A model generated the notes under the pieces. The model saw nothing but the letters and a program-made list of their open reading frames with translations. It was not told the DNA's origin and made no database searches. This document shows positions 5,813-59,802 of a stretch of DNA of 64,000 bases, piece by piece. Each line of letters begins with the position of its first letter. The first letter of the stretch is position 1. Location of the stretch: positions 64,001 through 128,000 of the IMG/VR virus record IMGVR_UViG_3300006750_000002. One strand, 5' to 3'. Source of the DNA: a virus. Made by a program: the position numbers and the translations under genes.

Positions 5813-6694
5813 ATGGGCACTTTAGACGCAATTTTAAAACAATACGAACAAGGACAAGTTCAAAGTAACGGACCGAAAAATAATATTAGTAGAGAAGACA
5901 GACTTAAAAAATACTTCGCTACTTATCTACCACAAGGAGAAAAAGAAGGTGAACGTAATATCAGAATTCTACCTACTAGTGATGGTAGTTCACCATTTAA
6001 GGAGGTGTTTTTCCATGAAATCCAAGTGGACGGTAAGTGGGTAAAATTGATGGACCCAGGAAAGAACGGTGACGGTTCACCAACAGGTGATAGGAGTCCA
6101 CTAAATGAAGTGGAAGAAGCACTTAAATTAACTGGTAACCAGAAAGACAAAGACATCGCTAGACAATACCGTTCTAAGAAATTTTACATTGTTAAAGTGA
6201 TTGACCGTGACGCAGAAGATGACGGCGTAAAATTTTGGAGATTTAAATGGAATTATAAAGGTGATGGTGTAATGGATAAGATTATCCCTATCTTTCAAAA
6301 AAGAGGAGACATTACAGACGCTAAAGAAGGTAGAGACTTAACTTTAATGTTAAAATCAGTACCACTTCCTAGTGGAAAAGGCAATTATACGGTTGTATCT
6401 ATGGTTATGGCTGAAGACCCATCCGTATTGGCGGGAGATGAAGCTACAACTAAAGAGTGGTTAGGAAATGTAGAAACATACAAAGATGTTTACGCACAAA
6501 GACCTGTAGAATATTTAGAGGCTGTATCTAGAGGGGAAACACCAGTTTGGGATACGGACCTTAAGAAATATGTTTATGGTGATACTGAATCTAGCATTGA
6601 TATGGGTGGAAACACACCTCAGTCACCTATTAACACTACTACTACAGTAGACCCACAAGCAAACGACTCAGAGTCTGACGATTTACCATTCTAA
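5813..6694 (+). CDS. single-stranded DNA-binding protein, T4 gp32-like
   Basis: IRILP...PFKEVFFH, KFYIVKVIDRD...GVKFWRF, DITDAKEGRDLTL and acidic C-terminal tail SESDDLPF. Confidence 0.8.
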   Translation: MGTLDAILKQYEQGQVQSNGPKNNISREDRLKKYFATYLPQGEKEGERNIRILPTSDGSSPFKEVFFHEIQVDGKWVKLMDPGKNGDGSPTGDRSPLNEVEEALKLTGNQKDKDIARQYRSKKFYIVKVIDRDAEDDGVKFWRFKWNYKGDGVMDKIIPIFQKRGDITDAKEGRDLTLMLKSVPLPSGKGNYTVVSMVMAEDPSVLAGDEATTKEWLGNVETYKDVYAQRPVEYLEAVSRGETPVWDTDLKKYVYGDTESSIDMGGNTPQSPINTTTTVDPQANDSESDDLPF

Positions 6695-52533: not shown

Positions 52534-54855
52534 ATGGTTAACAAAGATGAATTAAATAACCCTTTTATAAAGGTAACGTGGGAAGATAGTCCAGAAAATT
52601 TTACACAGGAGAAAATTAAAAGACTAAAGAGCCATTTTAAAAAAAAGTACAATTCTGAGAGAGTTAATGTCCTAACTAGGGTATCAGGTGTCGACACACC
52701 TAATAACCCCCAAGAGGTCACTGAAAACGTCATAGATAAAGAATATCAGAAGAGACTTGTAAAAGAATTTTTAAAAGAACAAGAGGTTATCGTAGATTGG
52801 GATAAGTTCGTTAGGTTGGACAATAGGGTAGAATCTAACATCCAGGAGGAAGAAAACACAACAAATAAAAAATGGTCCGTTAAATGGGTCGAGTTTAGTA
52901 ATTTTCTATCTTTTGGGGAAGGTAATAAAATAGACTTCACTAAGTATCCAGGAATTACAGCGGTCGATTCTAGTCCAGCTAACTTTGGGGGCAAAACCAC
53001 CTTAACGGTAGACTTATTATTGTTCCTATTTTTTAATGTAACCACTAAATCTTCAAAAGCTATAGAAGTGTTTAATAGATTCACAGATAAGAATAGGGTT
53101 TTAGTTAGTGGGGAAGTAGAAATTGATGGGGATAACTTTATTATAGAAAGAGGAGTAATACGTAGACAAACAAAAAAAGGCGAGTGGTCGGTAAAGACAG
53201 AATTAAATCTAAGTAAAAGATTAAGTGATGGTACTTCACAAAATCTACAAGGGGAACAAAGAAGAGAAACAGAAGAATTTCTAAAGAATTCTATAGGTAC
53301 TATGGATGATTTTTTACTAACTATCCTAACCACATCAAACAACCTTGAAAACTTATTAGAAGCCAAACCAACACAAAGAGGGCAAATACTTACAAGATTT
53401 GTTGGGTTAGAGAAACTAAAGAAGAAAGAAGAAAACTGTAAAGAGATTTATTCAGAGTGGAATAAAAAGATTATATCTAATCATTATAATATTAATGATT
53501 TAACTACTGATATTGTGAACTTGAAAGAAGAGATTAGAGAATTACAATTAACTAATGAATCGTCCAGTAAAGAAATAAAAACTTTAGAACTAAAGTATGG
53601 TGATGTGGTTACCTATAAAGAAAAATTAATATCTTCACAACATAACGACATAAATCCTGATTTGGTTAAAGTTAATCCTGAAACTTTAGAAGAAGAGATA
53701 GGTAAGTTGGGTGTAGAAGGCACTAAACTAAAACATAAATTAGATTTAATTATTTTAGATAAACCATCGACCATATATAGTGAAGATGAATATAAACTTT
53801 TGATAAAAGAAAACAAAACCCTAATCAAAGAAGACCTAGAGATTAAGAGTGAAATTAAAAATATAAATAAACTAATTAAAAATTTAGAAGAGGGGAAGAA
53901 CTGTCCTATGTGTAAACAACTATTGGAGGATGTGGACCATACCCAGGAGATTAAGGATAACCAGGTTAATTTAAAAGAGATTGTGGAAGACTCCAAAAAA
54001 ATCATGGATAAATTAGAAAATAGTGAACAGGCAATGGGTGAATGTGAAAGCATTAAATCTAGTTGGGAAGGATACGAAAAAGAATCCTTAAAAAAAATAA
54101 AAGTAGAGCTAGACATCAAAGAAAATAATATTACCCGTAAAGAAAAAACTTCCCTACTCAAAGAATGGGAGAGTAATAAAAGTAAGTTAGAGGAGAATAG
54201 AGTAGTGGAAAAGAAGTTGGTTTCTGCAAGGACTCTAATTGAAACCATTATAGCTGATAGAGACCAACTAAAAAGTAAAACTACATCCAACAATTCTAAA
54301 GTAACCCAAAAGAATGGAGAGATTCTAGATAAGACTAGTAAGATTAGTGAAATTAAAAAAGAAGAAGGTGTAGATAAAGTATTTAAGTCTTACTTAATTG
54401 CATACGGTAAAAATGGAATTTCTAAACTCATTTTAAGAAATACCATCCCTTATCTTAATAGTGAGTTAAATAGGTTATTGTCAGATAGTTGTGAATTCAC
54501 ACTACAACTTAGAATAAATGATAGGAACGAATTAGAATTTTGGATGGTAGACAATGGAACTGGAATTGAAAAATTAATGTCTAGTGGAAGTGGATATGAA
54601 AAGACTATCGCGTCCCTCGCATTGCGTTCGGTACTGTCTAAAGTATGTGCATTACCTAAACCTAACATAGTATGTTTTGATGAAGCGTTTGGGAAAGTTA
54701 GTGATGAAAATCTAGAGTTGGTTGGTAGGTTCTTTACAAAAATTAAAGATTACTTTGAAAGGATATTTGTAATTTCTCACAATCCATTAGTTAAAGACTG
54801 GTGTGACCAAACCATCACTGTTAAGAAAGAAAATAATGTCTCTAGGGTTATTTAA
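52534..54855 (+). CDS. sbcC: SbcC/Rad50 (T4 gp46-like) ATPase with about 110-aa N-terminal extension
   Basis: FSNFLSF, Walker A NFGGKTT, long coiled coil with CPMC zinc hook, signature SSGSGYE, Walker B VCFDEAF, H-loop ISH. Confidence 0.9.
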   Translation: MVNKDELNNPFIKVTWEDSPENFTQEKIKRLKSHFKKKYNSERVNVLTRVSGVDTPNNPQEVTENVIDKEYQKRLVKEFLKEQEVIVDWDKFVRLDNRVESNIQEEENTTNKKWSVKWVEFSNFLSFGEGNKIDFTKYPGITAVDSSPANFGGKTTLTVDLLLFLFFNVTTKSSKAIEVFNRFTDKNRVLVSGEVEIDGDNFIIERGVIRRQTKKGEWSVKTELNLSKRLSDGTSQNLQGEQRRETEEFLKNSIGTMDDFLLTILTTSNNLENLLEAKPTQRGQILTRFVGLEKLKKKEENCKEIYSEWNKKIISNHYNINDLTTDIVNLKEEIRELQLTNESSSKEIKTLELKYGDVVTYKEKLISSQHNDINPDLVKVNPETLEEEIGKLGVEGTKLKHKLDLIILDKPSTIYSEDEYKLLIKENKTLIKEDLEIKSEIKNINKLIKNLEEGKNCPMCKQLLEDVDHTQEIKDNQVNLKEIVEDSKKIMDKLENSEQAMGECESIKSSWEGYEKESLKKIKVELDIKENNITRKEKTSLLKEWESNKSKLEENRVVEKKLVSARTLIETIIADRDQLKSKTTSNNSKVTQKNGEILDKTSKISEIKKEEGVDKVFKSYLIAYGKNGISKLILRNTIPYLNSELNRLLSDSCEFTLQLRINDRNELEFWMVDNGTGIEKLMSSGSGYEKTIASLALRSVLSKVCALPKPNIVCFDEAFGKVSDENLELVGRFFTKIKDYFERIFVISHNPLVKDWCDQTITVKKENNVSRVI

Positions 54856-54870
54856 AATCATAGGATAGAA

Positions 54871-54901
54871 TTTGGTAGTGTCGATTTTATTATTATCTTT
54901 G
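54871..54901 (+). promoter_or_regulatory. Bacteroidota-type housekeeping (early) promoter
   Basis: TTTG (54871-54874), 19 nt, TATCTTTG (54894-54901): matches the -33/-7 consensus. Confidence 0.8.
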
Positions 54902-54927
54902 TAGTCTAACATTTTAAATAAGGTAAT

Positions 54928-55452
54928 ATGGACAACTTAAGAGAAGTACGACAAATGGCAAATCGATTGATGAGTGAAGAGTTTACGTTCACAGCATTCG
55001 GCAAAACCCACACACTTTCAGGTAACAATCTTGGTTACAGCTTCAAGTTCGATAACGCACGTCGGAGACTAGGGTGTTGTAATTATCGTACAAAGACCAT
55101 CAGTCTATCAAAACATCTTTGCCTTATGAACCTTGATAAGGTTGAGGGCAAACTTAAAGATACTGTATTACATGAGTTGGCACACGCATTTGATGTGGCG
55201 TTATATGGTTTAAGTAGTGGTCACGGACCTAGGTGGGTACGAATAGCACAATCAATCGGGTGTGATGGACAGCGTTGTTACAGTAGTGAGGATGTGAAGG
55301 AGGTAACCAATAGCAAGTATACTCACACTTGTCCAACGTGTGGAAACACAACACCTAGACATAAGAAGATAAGGAGGTCTTATAGTTGTGCACCGTGTTC
55401 AGGTGGGAGATACAACCCACAACACAAGTTGATTTTGACTCAGAATTATTAA
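54928..55452 (+). CDS. SprT-like zinc metalloprotease
   Basis: RRLGCC, TVLHELAH, GHGPRW, C-terminal CPTC...CAPC zinc ribbon. Confidence 0.85.
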   Translation: MDNLREVRQMANRLMSEEFTFTAFGKTHTLSGNNLGYSFKFDNARRRLGCCNYRTKTISLSKHLCLMNLDKVEGKLKDTVLHELAHAFDVALYGLSSGHGPRWVRIAQSIGCDGQRCYSSEDVKEVTNSKYTHTCPTCGNTTPRHKKIRRSYSCAPCSGGRYNPQHKLILTQNY

Positions 55453-56087: not shown

Positions 56088-56447
56088 TTAGAATTCCATA
56101 TTGTCGAAAGGTTCGATAAGGTTACCACGATTCTTAAATCCTACCCCACCTACATAGGTTTCCATATTACCCATTTTTCTTCTTTCGTAGTCTAGAATAG
56201 ATAATGCTAATTTTCTATCGTATTCTTTGTCGTCAGTTTCAGGAACTACCCCATCATAATAGATAGAACCTCTAAATCTTCTAACAGGGTTAGGGGAGTC
56301 CATTATCTCATCATAAGTAGAATCATCTATTTCGAATTCATAGTCATCCACAGGAAGTCTACTCTCCATTTCTTCTTCCTCTTGTTCGTTAAGGACTTTA
56401 CCTAAAGCTTTTTTAATGTCACTTTCTGTAATTCTAATTTTATTCAT
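56088..56447 (-). CDS. hypothetical, putative head-internal protein
   Basis: N-terminus KIRITESDIKKALGKVLNEQ resembles a motif in the 563-aa protein; TATTTATA on the minus strand at 56461-56468. Confidence 0.65.
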   Translation of the reverse strand: MNKIRITESDIKKALGKVLNEQEEEEMESRLPVDDYEFEIDDSTYDEIMDSPNPVRRFRGSIYYDGVVPETDDKEYDRKLALSILDYERRKMGNMETYVGGVGFKNRGNLIEPFDNMEF

Positions 56448-56483
56448 GGTATTCTTTTAATATAAATATAAACAAGGCTAAAT

Positions 56484-56512
56484 AAAAAAAGGGAATCTTT
56501 CAATTCCCTTTT
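56484..56512 (-). terminator. rho-independent terminator for the minus-strand transcript
   Basis: Plus strand AAAAAAAGGGAAT-CTTTCA-ATTCCCTTTT; gives hairpin plus T7 tract on the minus strand, 17 nt after the micro-ORF stop. Confidence 0.85.
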
Positions 56513-56529
56513 AATTAATTATTTAGTTT

Positions 56530-56592
56530 TTAACAATTGCAACAAGTACATTCACATTTGGTAGTACAGTTACATTCTTTACAATCACACAT
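56530..56592 (-). CDS. 20-aa Cys-rich metallothionein-like micropeptide (MCDCKECNCTTKCECTCCNC)
   Basis: Hand-translated: ATG at 56592, TAA at 56530; 9 Cys in 20 aa; A-rich leader; lies between the 563-aa gene stop and the terminator. Confidence 0.7.
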   Translation of the reverse strand: MCDCKECNCTTKCECTCCNC

Positions 56593-56617
56593 GATATTTT
56601 GTTTTTATAATGTTTAT

Positions 56618-58309
56618 TTAATCTACCTCACAACAGCTTTTACAACCTTTATTAACTGTAGGGTAATTTCCAGCTAATGTTGCTTGTTTTATTATTTTAT
56701 TGTCTCCACTTCTTTTTCCAAATTTGACACAACGACAAGTTACTTTTCCCCCTTCTAATTTCTTTTTTCTCTTACACCAGTCATGAAAATCATCTTCGGT
56801 TCCTCTTCTTTCAATATCGGCATCTGCTTTTTGCATCCAGTCCTTATCTTTTTTTTTTTCGTTAAGAACTCTGTCTACGATTTTGTAAAGGTCAGCCTCT
56901 GTAAGTTTGATTACGTTTTTTCTAGGATTTCTAGATTCCTTAAGGTCTTCTTCAGCTTTTTTAGAAATTTCTGTCGATTGTTCATTTAAGACTCTATATT
57001 TAGGTCTGTTAGTTCTTCCTCCCCCTAAAGATTTTTTACTAATACTTTTCTTTCTAGGGTTTCTAGACTCACTCAACTCATCCTTCTTCTTATCCTCTTT
57101 TTTCCCCCCTTTAAGCTGGGCTTTTAATTGAGCAATTAAAGCTTGTAATTCTCCATCACCCAAGTCCTTCATACTACCTATCCCTTTTCCACCACCACCG
57201 AATGGGTTGCTCACTGTAGTAACGTCAAATCCTGCACTATATGACCCTGCGTCATAAGCTGGTCTTGGACTTCCTTTACTTGATTTACTTGATTTACTTG
57301 ATTTACTTGATTTGGAATCGTCTCCTTTTTCTTTTGTAGAGTCATCTCCATCACCATCTCCATCACCATCTCCAGGAACATAGTCATCATCATCTTTTCC
57401 ATCATCTCCACCAGTATCTTCACCATCATCTCCACCAGTATCTTCACCAGTATCTTCACCATCATCTCCACCAGTATCTTCACCATCATCTCCACCAGTA
57501 TCTTCAGGAGCCCAATCCCATGGCGGTGGTGGGGCTGTACCACCCTCACCAGTATCTCCACCAGTATCTCCACCAGTATCTCCACCAGTATCTCCACCAG
57601 TACCAACACCTGAGTCTGTACCAGTATCTCCACCAGTATCTCCACCCGTTTCTTCCTCTGTTAATAATTTAACGTCTTTATATGTCATGCCGTCCTCAAA
57701 CAACATCATCTGTTTAATTCTGTCTAGTTGTTCTTGCATTGAACTTTTCATAGTATTTTGGTTTTCTTTATAAATATGTTTACTTTCTTCTTTTACCGTA
57801 AACATATCTGCGTTTTTTCTTATAGTTGCGTTATAGGTTTTTAATTCAGGACTTTTCTTACTTTGCCCCATTAAATGACCAGCATTTTTCTTCTCGATAT
57901 CCAACTTACCTTCTTCATCATAATTCTCCGAGTCTGCATTACAGTTTGTCTCATGGGAGACCTTTTCAGTTGGGTGATGCACCCCCCTAATTTCCACATA
58001 ATCGTCCCCAGTGTGGCTGTCTTGGGGGTTATAGTAATCTTTTTCTGGGTGGAGAGGCCTTTTGTTAGTCTCTTCGTCGTTAAAATTTTGACTATGGAAC
58101 CAGTAACTCCCCTCAAACGAAGGACTATCGTTAGGTATCCTCATAACACCCTTACCGATTCCACCTTCTGGCCATCCTGTGGCGGTATTGAATTCTGGCG
58201 TGTCTATAGGATGGATTCTATCTTTGGTGAAATCATTTTTTTTAACACCCTTTTTTACTTCTTTTTTAGAATCATCCTTCGATTCATTAAATTGGTAAGT
58301 TATTTTCAT
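56618..58309 (-). CDS. low-complexity putative head-internal protein
   Basis: 563 aa; [15 protein letters not shown] repeats; multiple L-x-E motifs; basic Cys-containing C-terminal domain KDWMQKA...WCK...KVTCRCV. Confidence 0.6.
57275..57650 (-). repeat. coding tandem repeats (9, 12 and 24 bp units)
   Basis: Plus strand TTTACTTGA x4 (57275-57310); CACCATCATCTCCACCAGTATCTT at 57421, 57457, 57481; CACCAGTATCTC x4 (57547-57594). Confidence 0.9.
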
Positions 58310-59007: not shown

Positions 59008-59802
59008 ATGAAAAAAACAGGACCTTTTATAAACCAAGATGAGATATCTCACTACTTGAAAGACGTGAGAAAAATAGACGTTTTAACAGTTAACAGAGAA
59101 AAAACGTTATCAAAGATAATGTTAAATTCCCCAACTCCTGAACAAAAAAAACAAATAGAAGAGGAGTTAATGTTGGGGAACCTACGATTTGTTATTAGTG
59201 TGGCTAGAGACTATCAGAACCAAGGAGTGGACTTACCCGACTTAATTGCGGAAGGGAATCACGGATTATTAAAAGCCATTAAGAATTTTGACTGGGGTAA
59301 AGGTAATAGATTTATCTCATATGCTGTATGGTGGGTAAAACAGTCTATTTTTCAGTGTTTAAATGAACATGCTAGGACTATTCGTCTACCTGCTAATATA
59401 GTCCAAGAAGTACAAAGAGCTAAAAAAATGGGAAATGTGGAAAACCATATGATAGATAGTAAACTTCAGAATTTACCTTATACCATTAATTTAGATAAAC
59501 CTATAAATGAAGAGGGTGATACCTTAGTGAGTGTCATTGAAAATAAAGACGCGGATAATCCAGAAGAAATATTTAATACTGATGAACAGTTAAAAATAGA
59601 GTTAAGAAAAATAATGGAAGTCTTGGACGATAGGGAAATTAAGATAGTTGGAGACTACTTTGGTCTAACTGAGACTCCCCGCACATTGTCCGCAATCGGA
59701 GAAGACTTTAACCTAACCAAGGAGAGAGTTAGACAGATTAAGGAGAAAGCACTACGTAAATTAAGAAATGAGAGTAGAGAACTTTTAGATTATATAGTAT
59801 AA
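59008..59802 (+). CDS. RNA polymerase sigma70-family factor (regions 1.2, 2, 3, 4; no region 1.1)
   Basis: YLKDV, GNLRFVISVARDY, DLIAEGN, RFISYAVWWVKQSI, RTIRLP, TLSAIGEDFNLTKERVRQIKEKALRKLR. Confidence 0.92.
   Translation: MKKTGPFINQDEISHYLKDVRKIDVLTVNREKTLSKIMLNSPTPEQKKQIEEELMLGNLRFVISVARDYQNQGVDLPDLIAEGNHGLLKAIKNFDWGKGNRFISYAVWWVKQSIFQCLNEHARTIRLPANIVQEVQRAKKMGNVENHMIDSKLQNLPYTINLDKPINEEGDTLVSVIENKDADNPEEIFNTDEQLKIELRKIMEVLDDREIKIVGDYFGLTETPRTLSAIGEDFNLTKERVRQIKEKALRKLRNESRELLDYIV

Follow-up and report, generated by a model that had tools for sequence, protein, structure and literature searches.

Metallothioneins are polyphyletic; bacterial SmtA has more than 50 residues, a zinc-finger-like fold and His ligands, and the fungal family-1 Cu-metallothioneins, at about 25 residues, are the smallest known. 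Those of Neurospora crassa and Agaricus bisporus have seven Cys and bind about six Cu(I) (PMC13107397), and in the mammalian beta-domain nine Cys bind three divalent ions as M(II)3Cys9 (PMC2872756, PMC13107397). Mycobacterial polycysteine attenuators are very short Cys-rich ORFs that stand, leaderless, as the first ORF of cysteine-metabolism operons (Canestrari et al., bioRxiv 10.1101/834739); they need consecutive Cys codons (at least two, usually at least three) and an RNA duplex that hides the next ribosome-binding site (bioRxiv 10.1101/834739). The internal proteins of T-even phages form a hypervariable, injected anti-restriction set in which the only common feature is the propeptide (PMC3012670, PMC9026906). 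In the full-text literature we found no phage or viral metallothionein of the kind described below, and one preprint names metallothionein-annotated auxiliary genes of fumarole viruses in a list that gives no detail of them.

Here, we analyze a micro-ORF that, judged from contig comparisons, is a member of a large unannotated family of peptides of 20–22 residues with nine Cys, carried by many uncultured marine phages. The peptide resembles the mammalian beta-domain in its nine Cys, its CxC motifs, its lack of aromatics, its Lys/Ser/Thr/Gly/Asn/Asp filler and a thiol number sufficient for a three-metal cluster; it differs in holding the nine Cys within 19 residues (approximately 25–30 in the mammalian case), in the two adjacent Cys close to its C-terminus and in being encoded by a gene of its own. 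We do not count it as a vertebrate-type beta-domain, given that the Cys number matches, the spacing differs and a family profile matches no PDB chain at E up to 10. Like the fungal Cu-metallothioneins, the phage peptides are single-domain, very short, rich in Cys-x-Cys and free of aromatics, but, with 20–22 residues and nine Cys, these viral peptides are shorter still and have no sequence relationship to them. With SmtA and BmtA they share the standing of Cys-rich metal-binding candidates of the prokaryote world. A Pfam search at E up to 10 gave no match to the SmtA/BmtA family (PF02069), which is also not found in the 191-kb record, with a positive Synechococcus control, and we do not place the peptide in that family.

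The micro-ORF and its surroundings in the window

The window, that is, the whole stretch of 64,000 nucleotides that was analyzed, covers positions 64,001 to 128,000 of the IMG/VR record IMGVR_UViG_3300006750_000002, a 190.9-kb, approximately 60%-complete jumbo-phage fragment with 35% G+C. The sequence-only reading had claimed a minus-strand ORF of 20 residues with nine Cys that begins behind an A-rich leader 25 nt past the stop of a 563-aa gene and is followed by a rho-independent terminator. The ORF is present exactly at 56530-56592 and runs from an ATG at 56592 (-) to TAA with the spacing C-x-C-x2-C-x-C-x3-C-x-C-x-C-C-x-C, eight TGT and one TGC codons for Cys, and no aromatic residue; its distance from the 563-aa gene and its leader were confirmed (Table 1), and the terminator holds up because an 11-pair hairpin with a T-run begins 17 nt after the micro-ORF stop. 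The terminator is nearly invariant in all seven contigs of the window clade (the window, L002, L003, L299, L300, L344 and L365). The accompanying idea that the micro-ORF is the last gene of a transcript stands for the window clade and one other large group and falls for group b, in which the next gene begins 12 nt past the micro-ORF stop with no terminator between.

Table 1 Features at the micro-ORF locus (positions in the window)
Feature	Position	Strand	Remark
Nine-Cys micropeptide gene, 20 codons + TAA (stop 56530-56532)	56530..56592	-	T-T-K subtype between Cys4 and Cys5
A-rich leader, 25 nt, without SD, between 563-aa gene stop and micro-ORF ATG	56593..56617	-	
Intrinsic terminator: A-tract + G+C-cored hairpin (11 pairs, loop of 4) + T-run	56480..56512	-	
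563-aa low-complexity acidic/Gly-rich gene, upstream of micro-ORF	56618..58309	-	Ends TAA
119-aa gene, downstream of micro-ORF	56088..56447	-	

The initiation context is good by the standards of this phage, in which leaders are usually A-rich and G-poor and an SD-like core precedes only 5 of 128 long genes: scored with a position weight matrix of the phage's own gene starts, the micro-ORF leader lies at the 84th percentile of real starts and the 99th of all ATGs. A sigma-70 promoter scan around the locus scored no better than shuffles, and no clear Bacteroidota-type promoter was seen by eye upstream of the 563-aa gene. At least 17 marine metagenome runs contain half or more of the words sampled from a 2.5-kb stretch around the locus, contigs from three marine DNA runs carry the micro-ORF unchanged, and the runs listed as matching the stretch include no RNA run. 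Among the genes nearby, at window positions 52534-55452 (+) and 59008-59802 (+), are ones for a Rad50/SbcC-like ATPase that matches a zinc hook, a SprT-like zinc metalloprotease bearing a zinc ribbon and a sigma-70-family factor of the phage; we found no functional tie of any of these three to the micropeptide.

Within the 191-kb record, a search of all six frames for 20-codon windows with nine Cys returned only the micro-ORF, and the runner-up has six Cys. After mononucleotide shuffling of the genome the best windows had 5–8 Cys, with eight reached in 1 of 20 shuffles. Nine Cys codons are improbable by chance, as had been proposed, given that the shuffles stop at eight and the same skeleton recurs in other phages; base composition alone makes the micro-ORF unlikely, not impossible, and the decisive evidence is its conservation elsewhere.

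A nine-cysteine family under purifying selection

Degenerate-pattern scans place the same skeleton, C-x-C-x2-C-x-C-x3-C-x-C-x-C-C-x-C followed by a stop, at more than 130 viral and 52 metagenome loci. A DNA pattern covering the eight residues that follow Met matched 12 viral loci encoding eight peptides, and two unrelated contigs among them carry canonical AGGAG/GGAGG boxes; in two syntenic sister phages the peptide is either identical (L002) or differs by two replacements alongside synonymous changes (L003). A pattern for the last six residues plus the stop gave at least 122 viral matches, and among the matches listed 82 are family ORFs of 20–22 codons and 40 are chance matches in other frames. 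The same C-terminal pattern found 52 family ORFs in 119 matches in metagenome contigs, in the same neighbourhoods as the viral set. In the viral set, at least 45 different peptides are encoded by 57 different ORF DNAs, which stand in at least 67 distinct flanking contexts. The genes of this family, which occur in well over a hundred marine phage contigs, fall short of the minimum ORF length and so escape standard annotation.

No internal indel is needed to align the family. Of the nine Cys columns, eight do not vary at all and one is more than 90% conserved; Thr15 and Asn18 hardly vary, Gly9 and Ser11 are the strongly favoured residues at their positions, and all peptides terminate exactly on the last Cys, with 0–3 residues before the first. 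Cys makes up 41–45% of the residues (45% in the window peptide), the fillers are Lys, Asp, Glu, Asn, Gly, Ser and Thr, and Phe, Tyr and Trp are absent from every family peptide listed. A single variant contains a His, which replaces Cys6 through a two-base change in two contigs (L147:1424-1486 (+), also L013 and L017) and is the only non-Cys residue at any skeleton position among the family members found.

The family peptides matched no family in Pfam, NCBIfam or PHROG at E up to 10, and a family profile matched none of all PDB chains at E up to 10, a negative result weakened by HMMER composition filters, which probably suppress matches of Cys-rich sequences. Neither tblastn with a family peptide nor blastn with the carrier loci found anything meaningful in 50,697 GenBank phage records, a result limited by the low-complexity filter.

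Substitutions in the family follow the reading frame. TGT/TGC turnover occurs at every Cys position, TCA and AGT codons both occur for Ser11, three to four different codons serve for Gly9 and for Thr15, and third codon positions are two- to threefold as diverse as first and second ones. The overall pN/pS (Nei-Gojobori) is 0.23, and at the Cys codons pN is 0.003 against a pS of 0.93; the filler codons, at a ratio of 0.63, are weakly constrained. When the six frames are compared, the sense frame has the lowest pN/pS. One further frame is free of stops and has a ratio of 1.19, indicating no purifying selection, which leaves the sense frame as the only stop-free one under such selection, and the three antisense frames have ratios of 0.44–1.55 and stops in some members.

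Part of the Cys invariance is inherent in the search patterns, and the test was therefore repeated on loci picked only by their neighbouring gene. The micro-ORF was present in 45 of 79 such loci in one group and in about 12 of 60 in another, in which many flanks are cut. All of these ORFs are intact with the full skeleton, and they include new C-terminal variants beyond the reach of the search pattern. Related phage contigs clearly have the conserved but synonymously varied Cys codons that the sequence-only reading had named as the check on its proposal, and the contrast of pN and pS at these codons across the family supports a real, selected micro-gene.

Could the micro-ORF still be a chance or non-functional ORF, or a conserved non-coding DNA or RNA element with one frame open by accident? 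In favour of this are its very small size and the one shuffled genome that came within one Cys of it. A chance origin would, however, have to account for a skeleton repeated at well over 100 loci in at least eight unrelated neighbourhoods, for substitutions biased to third positions, for the lowest pN/pS in the sense frame with no frame breaks, and for the proper SD boxes that precede relatives in SD-using phages. Such an origin is effectively refuted by the comparative data, and we regard it as extremely improbable.

A compact cassette in variable neighbourhoods

The micro-gene is a compact cassette of 63–80 nt that is either intact or cleanly absent, usually at operon 3' ends. At loci that lack it the upstream stop runs directly into the downstream sequence, and the difference between occupied and empty loci is a block of 63–80 nt (the ORF with or without a 14-nt leader). 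In some group-a loci the ATG overlaps the upstream stop as TAATG. One comparison (L143-L146 against L153, at about 1400-1500) has an 80-nt block, made up of a 14-nt leader and a 66-nt ORF, that is present or absent between similar CTGTAA / CTGTTAA flanks, which suggests insertion or deletion by microhomology. The only decayed copy that we found (L226-L228, at about 1340-1380) is a shortened remnant that has lost the ATG and mid-skeleton and is fused in frame to the end of the upstream ORF.

The surroundings fall into at least eight unrelated gene arrangements with no enzyme in common, no conserved maturase or partner gene across them and no linked metal-homeostasis genes. We rejected a RiPP precursor on the grounds that only 0–3 residues precede the first Cys and no enzyme is common to the neighbourhoods. 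In the seven contigs of the window clade, the block of micro-ORF, spacer, terminator and 119-aa gene is nearly identical in nucleotides, and the genes directly upstream of the micro-ORF are of four unrelated kinds, with the 563-aa gene replaced (56447-56620 compared). The short A-rich leader is therefore read as a recombination junction, given that four unrelated upstream genes abut a near-identical block. Around more distant homologues of the 119-aa gene (L004-L010), a micro-ORF is absent from the nearest 5 kb.

The nearest cultured relative of group a is Flavobacterium phage immuto (terminase 58% identical), which lacks the family skeleton. In this group a covarying hairpin comes next on the 3' side of the micro-ORF; behind it lie an intrinsic terminator and a conserved box, and beyond the box is a gene whose N-terminus is of FAD/NAD(P)-binding type. 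The hairpin has an invariant loop, GATTCATAGCC, on a stem of 4–5 bp that occurs in at least seven compensatory versions, and the terminator and the conserved box CGTATATTAAC come after it. The region (L027:3300-3414, L218-L276 just upstream of 1501, and many metagenome loci) falls between the last gene of the operon and the FAD/NAD(P)-binding-type 453-aa gene, and it has no Rfam match at E up to 1. Hairpin, terminator and box are also present where the micro-ORF is absent.

These arrangements bear on a cis-acting role, in which ribosomes would slow on the nine Cys codons when Cys-tRNA is scarce and thereby alter terminator read-through or coupling to the next gene, the peptide itself being irrelevant. 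Hairpins or a terminator do lie 8–17 nt past the micro-ORF in the window clade and group a, with a co-oriented gene beyond, and the next gene of group b is equally close. The combination of conserved Cys codons and loosely constrained fillers fits as well, and conserved Cys codons with free synonymous change are also expected of a Cys-sensing ribosome-stalling ORF; the mycobacterial polycysteine short ORFs (bioRxiv 10.1101/834739) provide a precedent. The phage ORF is like these in being unannotated, very short, Cys-rich and inside an operon, but it is usually last in the operon, its Cys are spaced and the genes downstream are unrelated phage genes.

The details fit a sensor poorly. The fold contains no antiterminator pairing between the micro-ORF and the terminator arms, the same hairpins and terminators persist at loci without the micro-ORF, the downstream genes vary by context and none serves cysteine metabolism, and the micro-ORF, usually last and not first in its transcript, has one adjacent Cys pair only. 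A stalling tract would also leave unexplained the fixed length and spacing, the exact end on the last Cys, the conserved Gly9, Ser11 (in two codon families), Thr15 and Asn18, and the tolerance of Cys-to-His replacement; length, spacing and filler conservation are, as far as the alignment can tell, constraints on the peptide. We consider the sensor role improbable. The described attenuator types were rejected separately. The micro-ORF follows the 563-aa gene and precedes a terminator, so it is not the leaderless first ORF of the mycobacterial type, nor does its one C-C pair, with no duplex in the MFE or centroid fold, match the Cys run and RNA duplex of that type. As for a classic leader-peptide attenuator, the locus has the terminator and no antiterminator, and terminators persist without the micro-ORF.

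The picture that we propose for the cassette is that it inserts directly after the stop of another gene, usually at an operon 3' end, and spreads among marine phages that would mostly be T4-like or of Bacteroidota type. Because it sits right behind a gene's stop, the peptide would be translated from the mRNA of its host operon, through the A-rich non-SD leader or by stop/start coupling. The exact gain or loss of an approximately 80-nt cassette at stop codons illustrates how such micro-genes pass from one phage genome to another.

Metal-thiolate clusters, head proteins and protein targets

A peptide-level function points most simply to metal. The peptide matches the operational class of metallothioneins in its small size and high Cys content in CxC, CC and CxxC motifs (nine Cys in 20 residues) and in its few or no aromatics and His. 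A member of this class would also bind several d10 metal ions in thiolate clusters that have a characteristic spectroscopic signature. For closely spaced thiolates without aromatics the simplest chemistry is a metal-thiolate cluster, and His is the other common ligand of thiolate clusters or Zn. The Cys-to-His replacement fits a ligand role better than disulfide formation or codon stalling. For both reasons we favour, at slightly better than even confidence, a miniature metallothionein-like peptide with nine thiolates around metal ions. Its nine Cys thiolates would wrap a small metal-thiolate cluster, which by analogy with nine-Cys beta-type domains would most simply hold three divalent ions (Zn or Cd), or several Cu(I), and a role in buffering or delivering metal during infection may follow. 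The metallothionein-like interpretation offered by the sequence-only reading stands in composition, CxC/CC motifs, lack of aromatics and thiol number, and not in homology to any metallothionein family; with no detectable homology to metallothionein families or solved structures, the resemblance is compositional. The further proposals of that reading, namely that the peptide buffers Zn, Cu or Cd, supplies the Cys-rich proteins of the phage or is itself packaged, gained no support from the comparisons.

The genes that accompany the cassette suggest another setting. N-termini of the form phi-x-x-phi-[LIV]-x-E occur in 14 of 26 neighbour clusters, compared with about 21% of all N-termini in these loci. 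The N-terminus of the 563-aa gene (58283-58309 (-)), MKITYQFNE, resembles the capsid-targeting sequence of T4 internal proteins, of which ipII and ipIII both begin MKTYQEFIAE when checked, and flanking genes with capsid-targeting-like N-termini are found at further loci (L011, L042, L045, L057, L065, L107, L128 and L133). At L128 the micro-ORF has the gene of a gp21-type prohead protease on one side and a scaffold-like gene on the other. In the 60%-complete record of the window a gp21-type protease (PF03420) was not found, a search in which control genomes gave no match either, and the gp23 match is sub-threshold, so for the 563-aa gene the capsid-targeting reading is one of resemblance. Together the neighbours suggest that the cassette sits in loci resembling hypervariable internal-head-protein loci. 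Like the T4 internal-protein loci, these would be hypervariable cassettes of small late genes whose neighbours have N-termini resembling the ipII/ipIII propeptide; unlike their products, the micropeptide is without such a propeptide.

This setting opens the possibility that the translated peptide does not store or buffer metal but acts as a small Cys or metal-knuckle ligand that binds a protein of the host or the phage and inhibits or modifies it (in counter-defence or takeover, for instance), as a thiol/redox peptide, or as a companion packaged with head-internal proteins. The preference for neighbours with capsid-targeting-like N-termini and the position of the micro-ORF at L128 are in line with this, as are the accessory, cassette-like distribution and the precedent of hypervariable, injected anti-restriction proteins in T-even phages (PMC3012670, PMC9026906). 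So are the changes within the window clade, which are mostly charge swaps at filler positions with the Cys untouched, next to flanking non-coding DNA that is almost invariant; such swaps could equally fit a binding interface under diversifying selection. Weighing against it, the peptide starts M-(K)-C and lacks an N-terminus of the capsid-targeting kind, and the contexts have no conserved partner in common. Recognition of a protein target would also largely presuppose metal binding, because a 19-residue nine-Cys skeleton offers little surface unless folded round metal. We judge a function of this kind, apart from metal storage or buffering, to be rather unlikely.

For the metallothionein-like peptide, the fullest scenario joins these strands and is in our view possible, if doubtful. 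In it, a mobile mini-gene of about 80 nt, residing in late or head-internal-protein loci of abundant ocean phages, would encode a metallothionein-type peptide smaller than any other known to be made on ribosomes, its nine thiolates within 19 residues forming one three-metal or Cu(I) cluster, and would serve to reprogramme or exploit the Zn, Cu and Cd pools of marine Bacteroidota during infection, possibly delivered, as peptide or metal, with packaged proteins. Zn, Cu and Cd are scarce and biologically limiting in the ocean, and if the peptide binds metal, trace-metal handling would join the host processes that are manipulated by ocean phages. No genetically encoded peptide of metallothionein type would then be shorter, and it would be the first viral one to be characterized, as well as a minimal model of thiolate-cluster folding and a very small metal-binding tag.

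Some Cys-rich ORFs found by the scans lie outside the family. Three micro-ORFs of 14–25 residues (L012:3517-3558 (+), L018 (-) at about 5855-5930 and L022:4692-4751 (+)) have only the N-terminal motif in common with it, and two of them sit behind canonical SD boxes; they are possibly more distant relatives or convergent peptides. In cellular genome contigs the N-terminal motif of the window subtype had a sole match, an unrelated Cys-rich ORF of a Peribacteria MAG (contig CAZDFH010000004.1, L023:140-280 (-)) with a C-D-C-K-E-C-N-C motif and one in-frame TGA. Under table 25, with TGA recoding in this lineage as an assumption, that ORF encodes 47 residues, 17 of them Cys.
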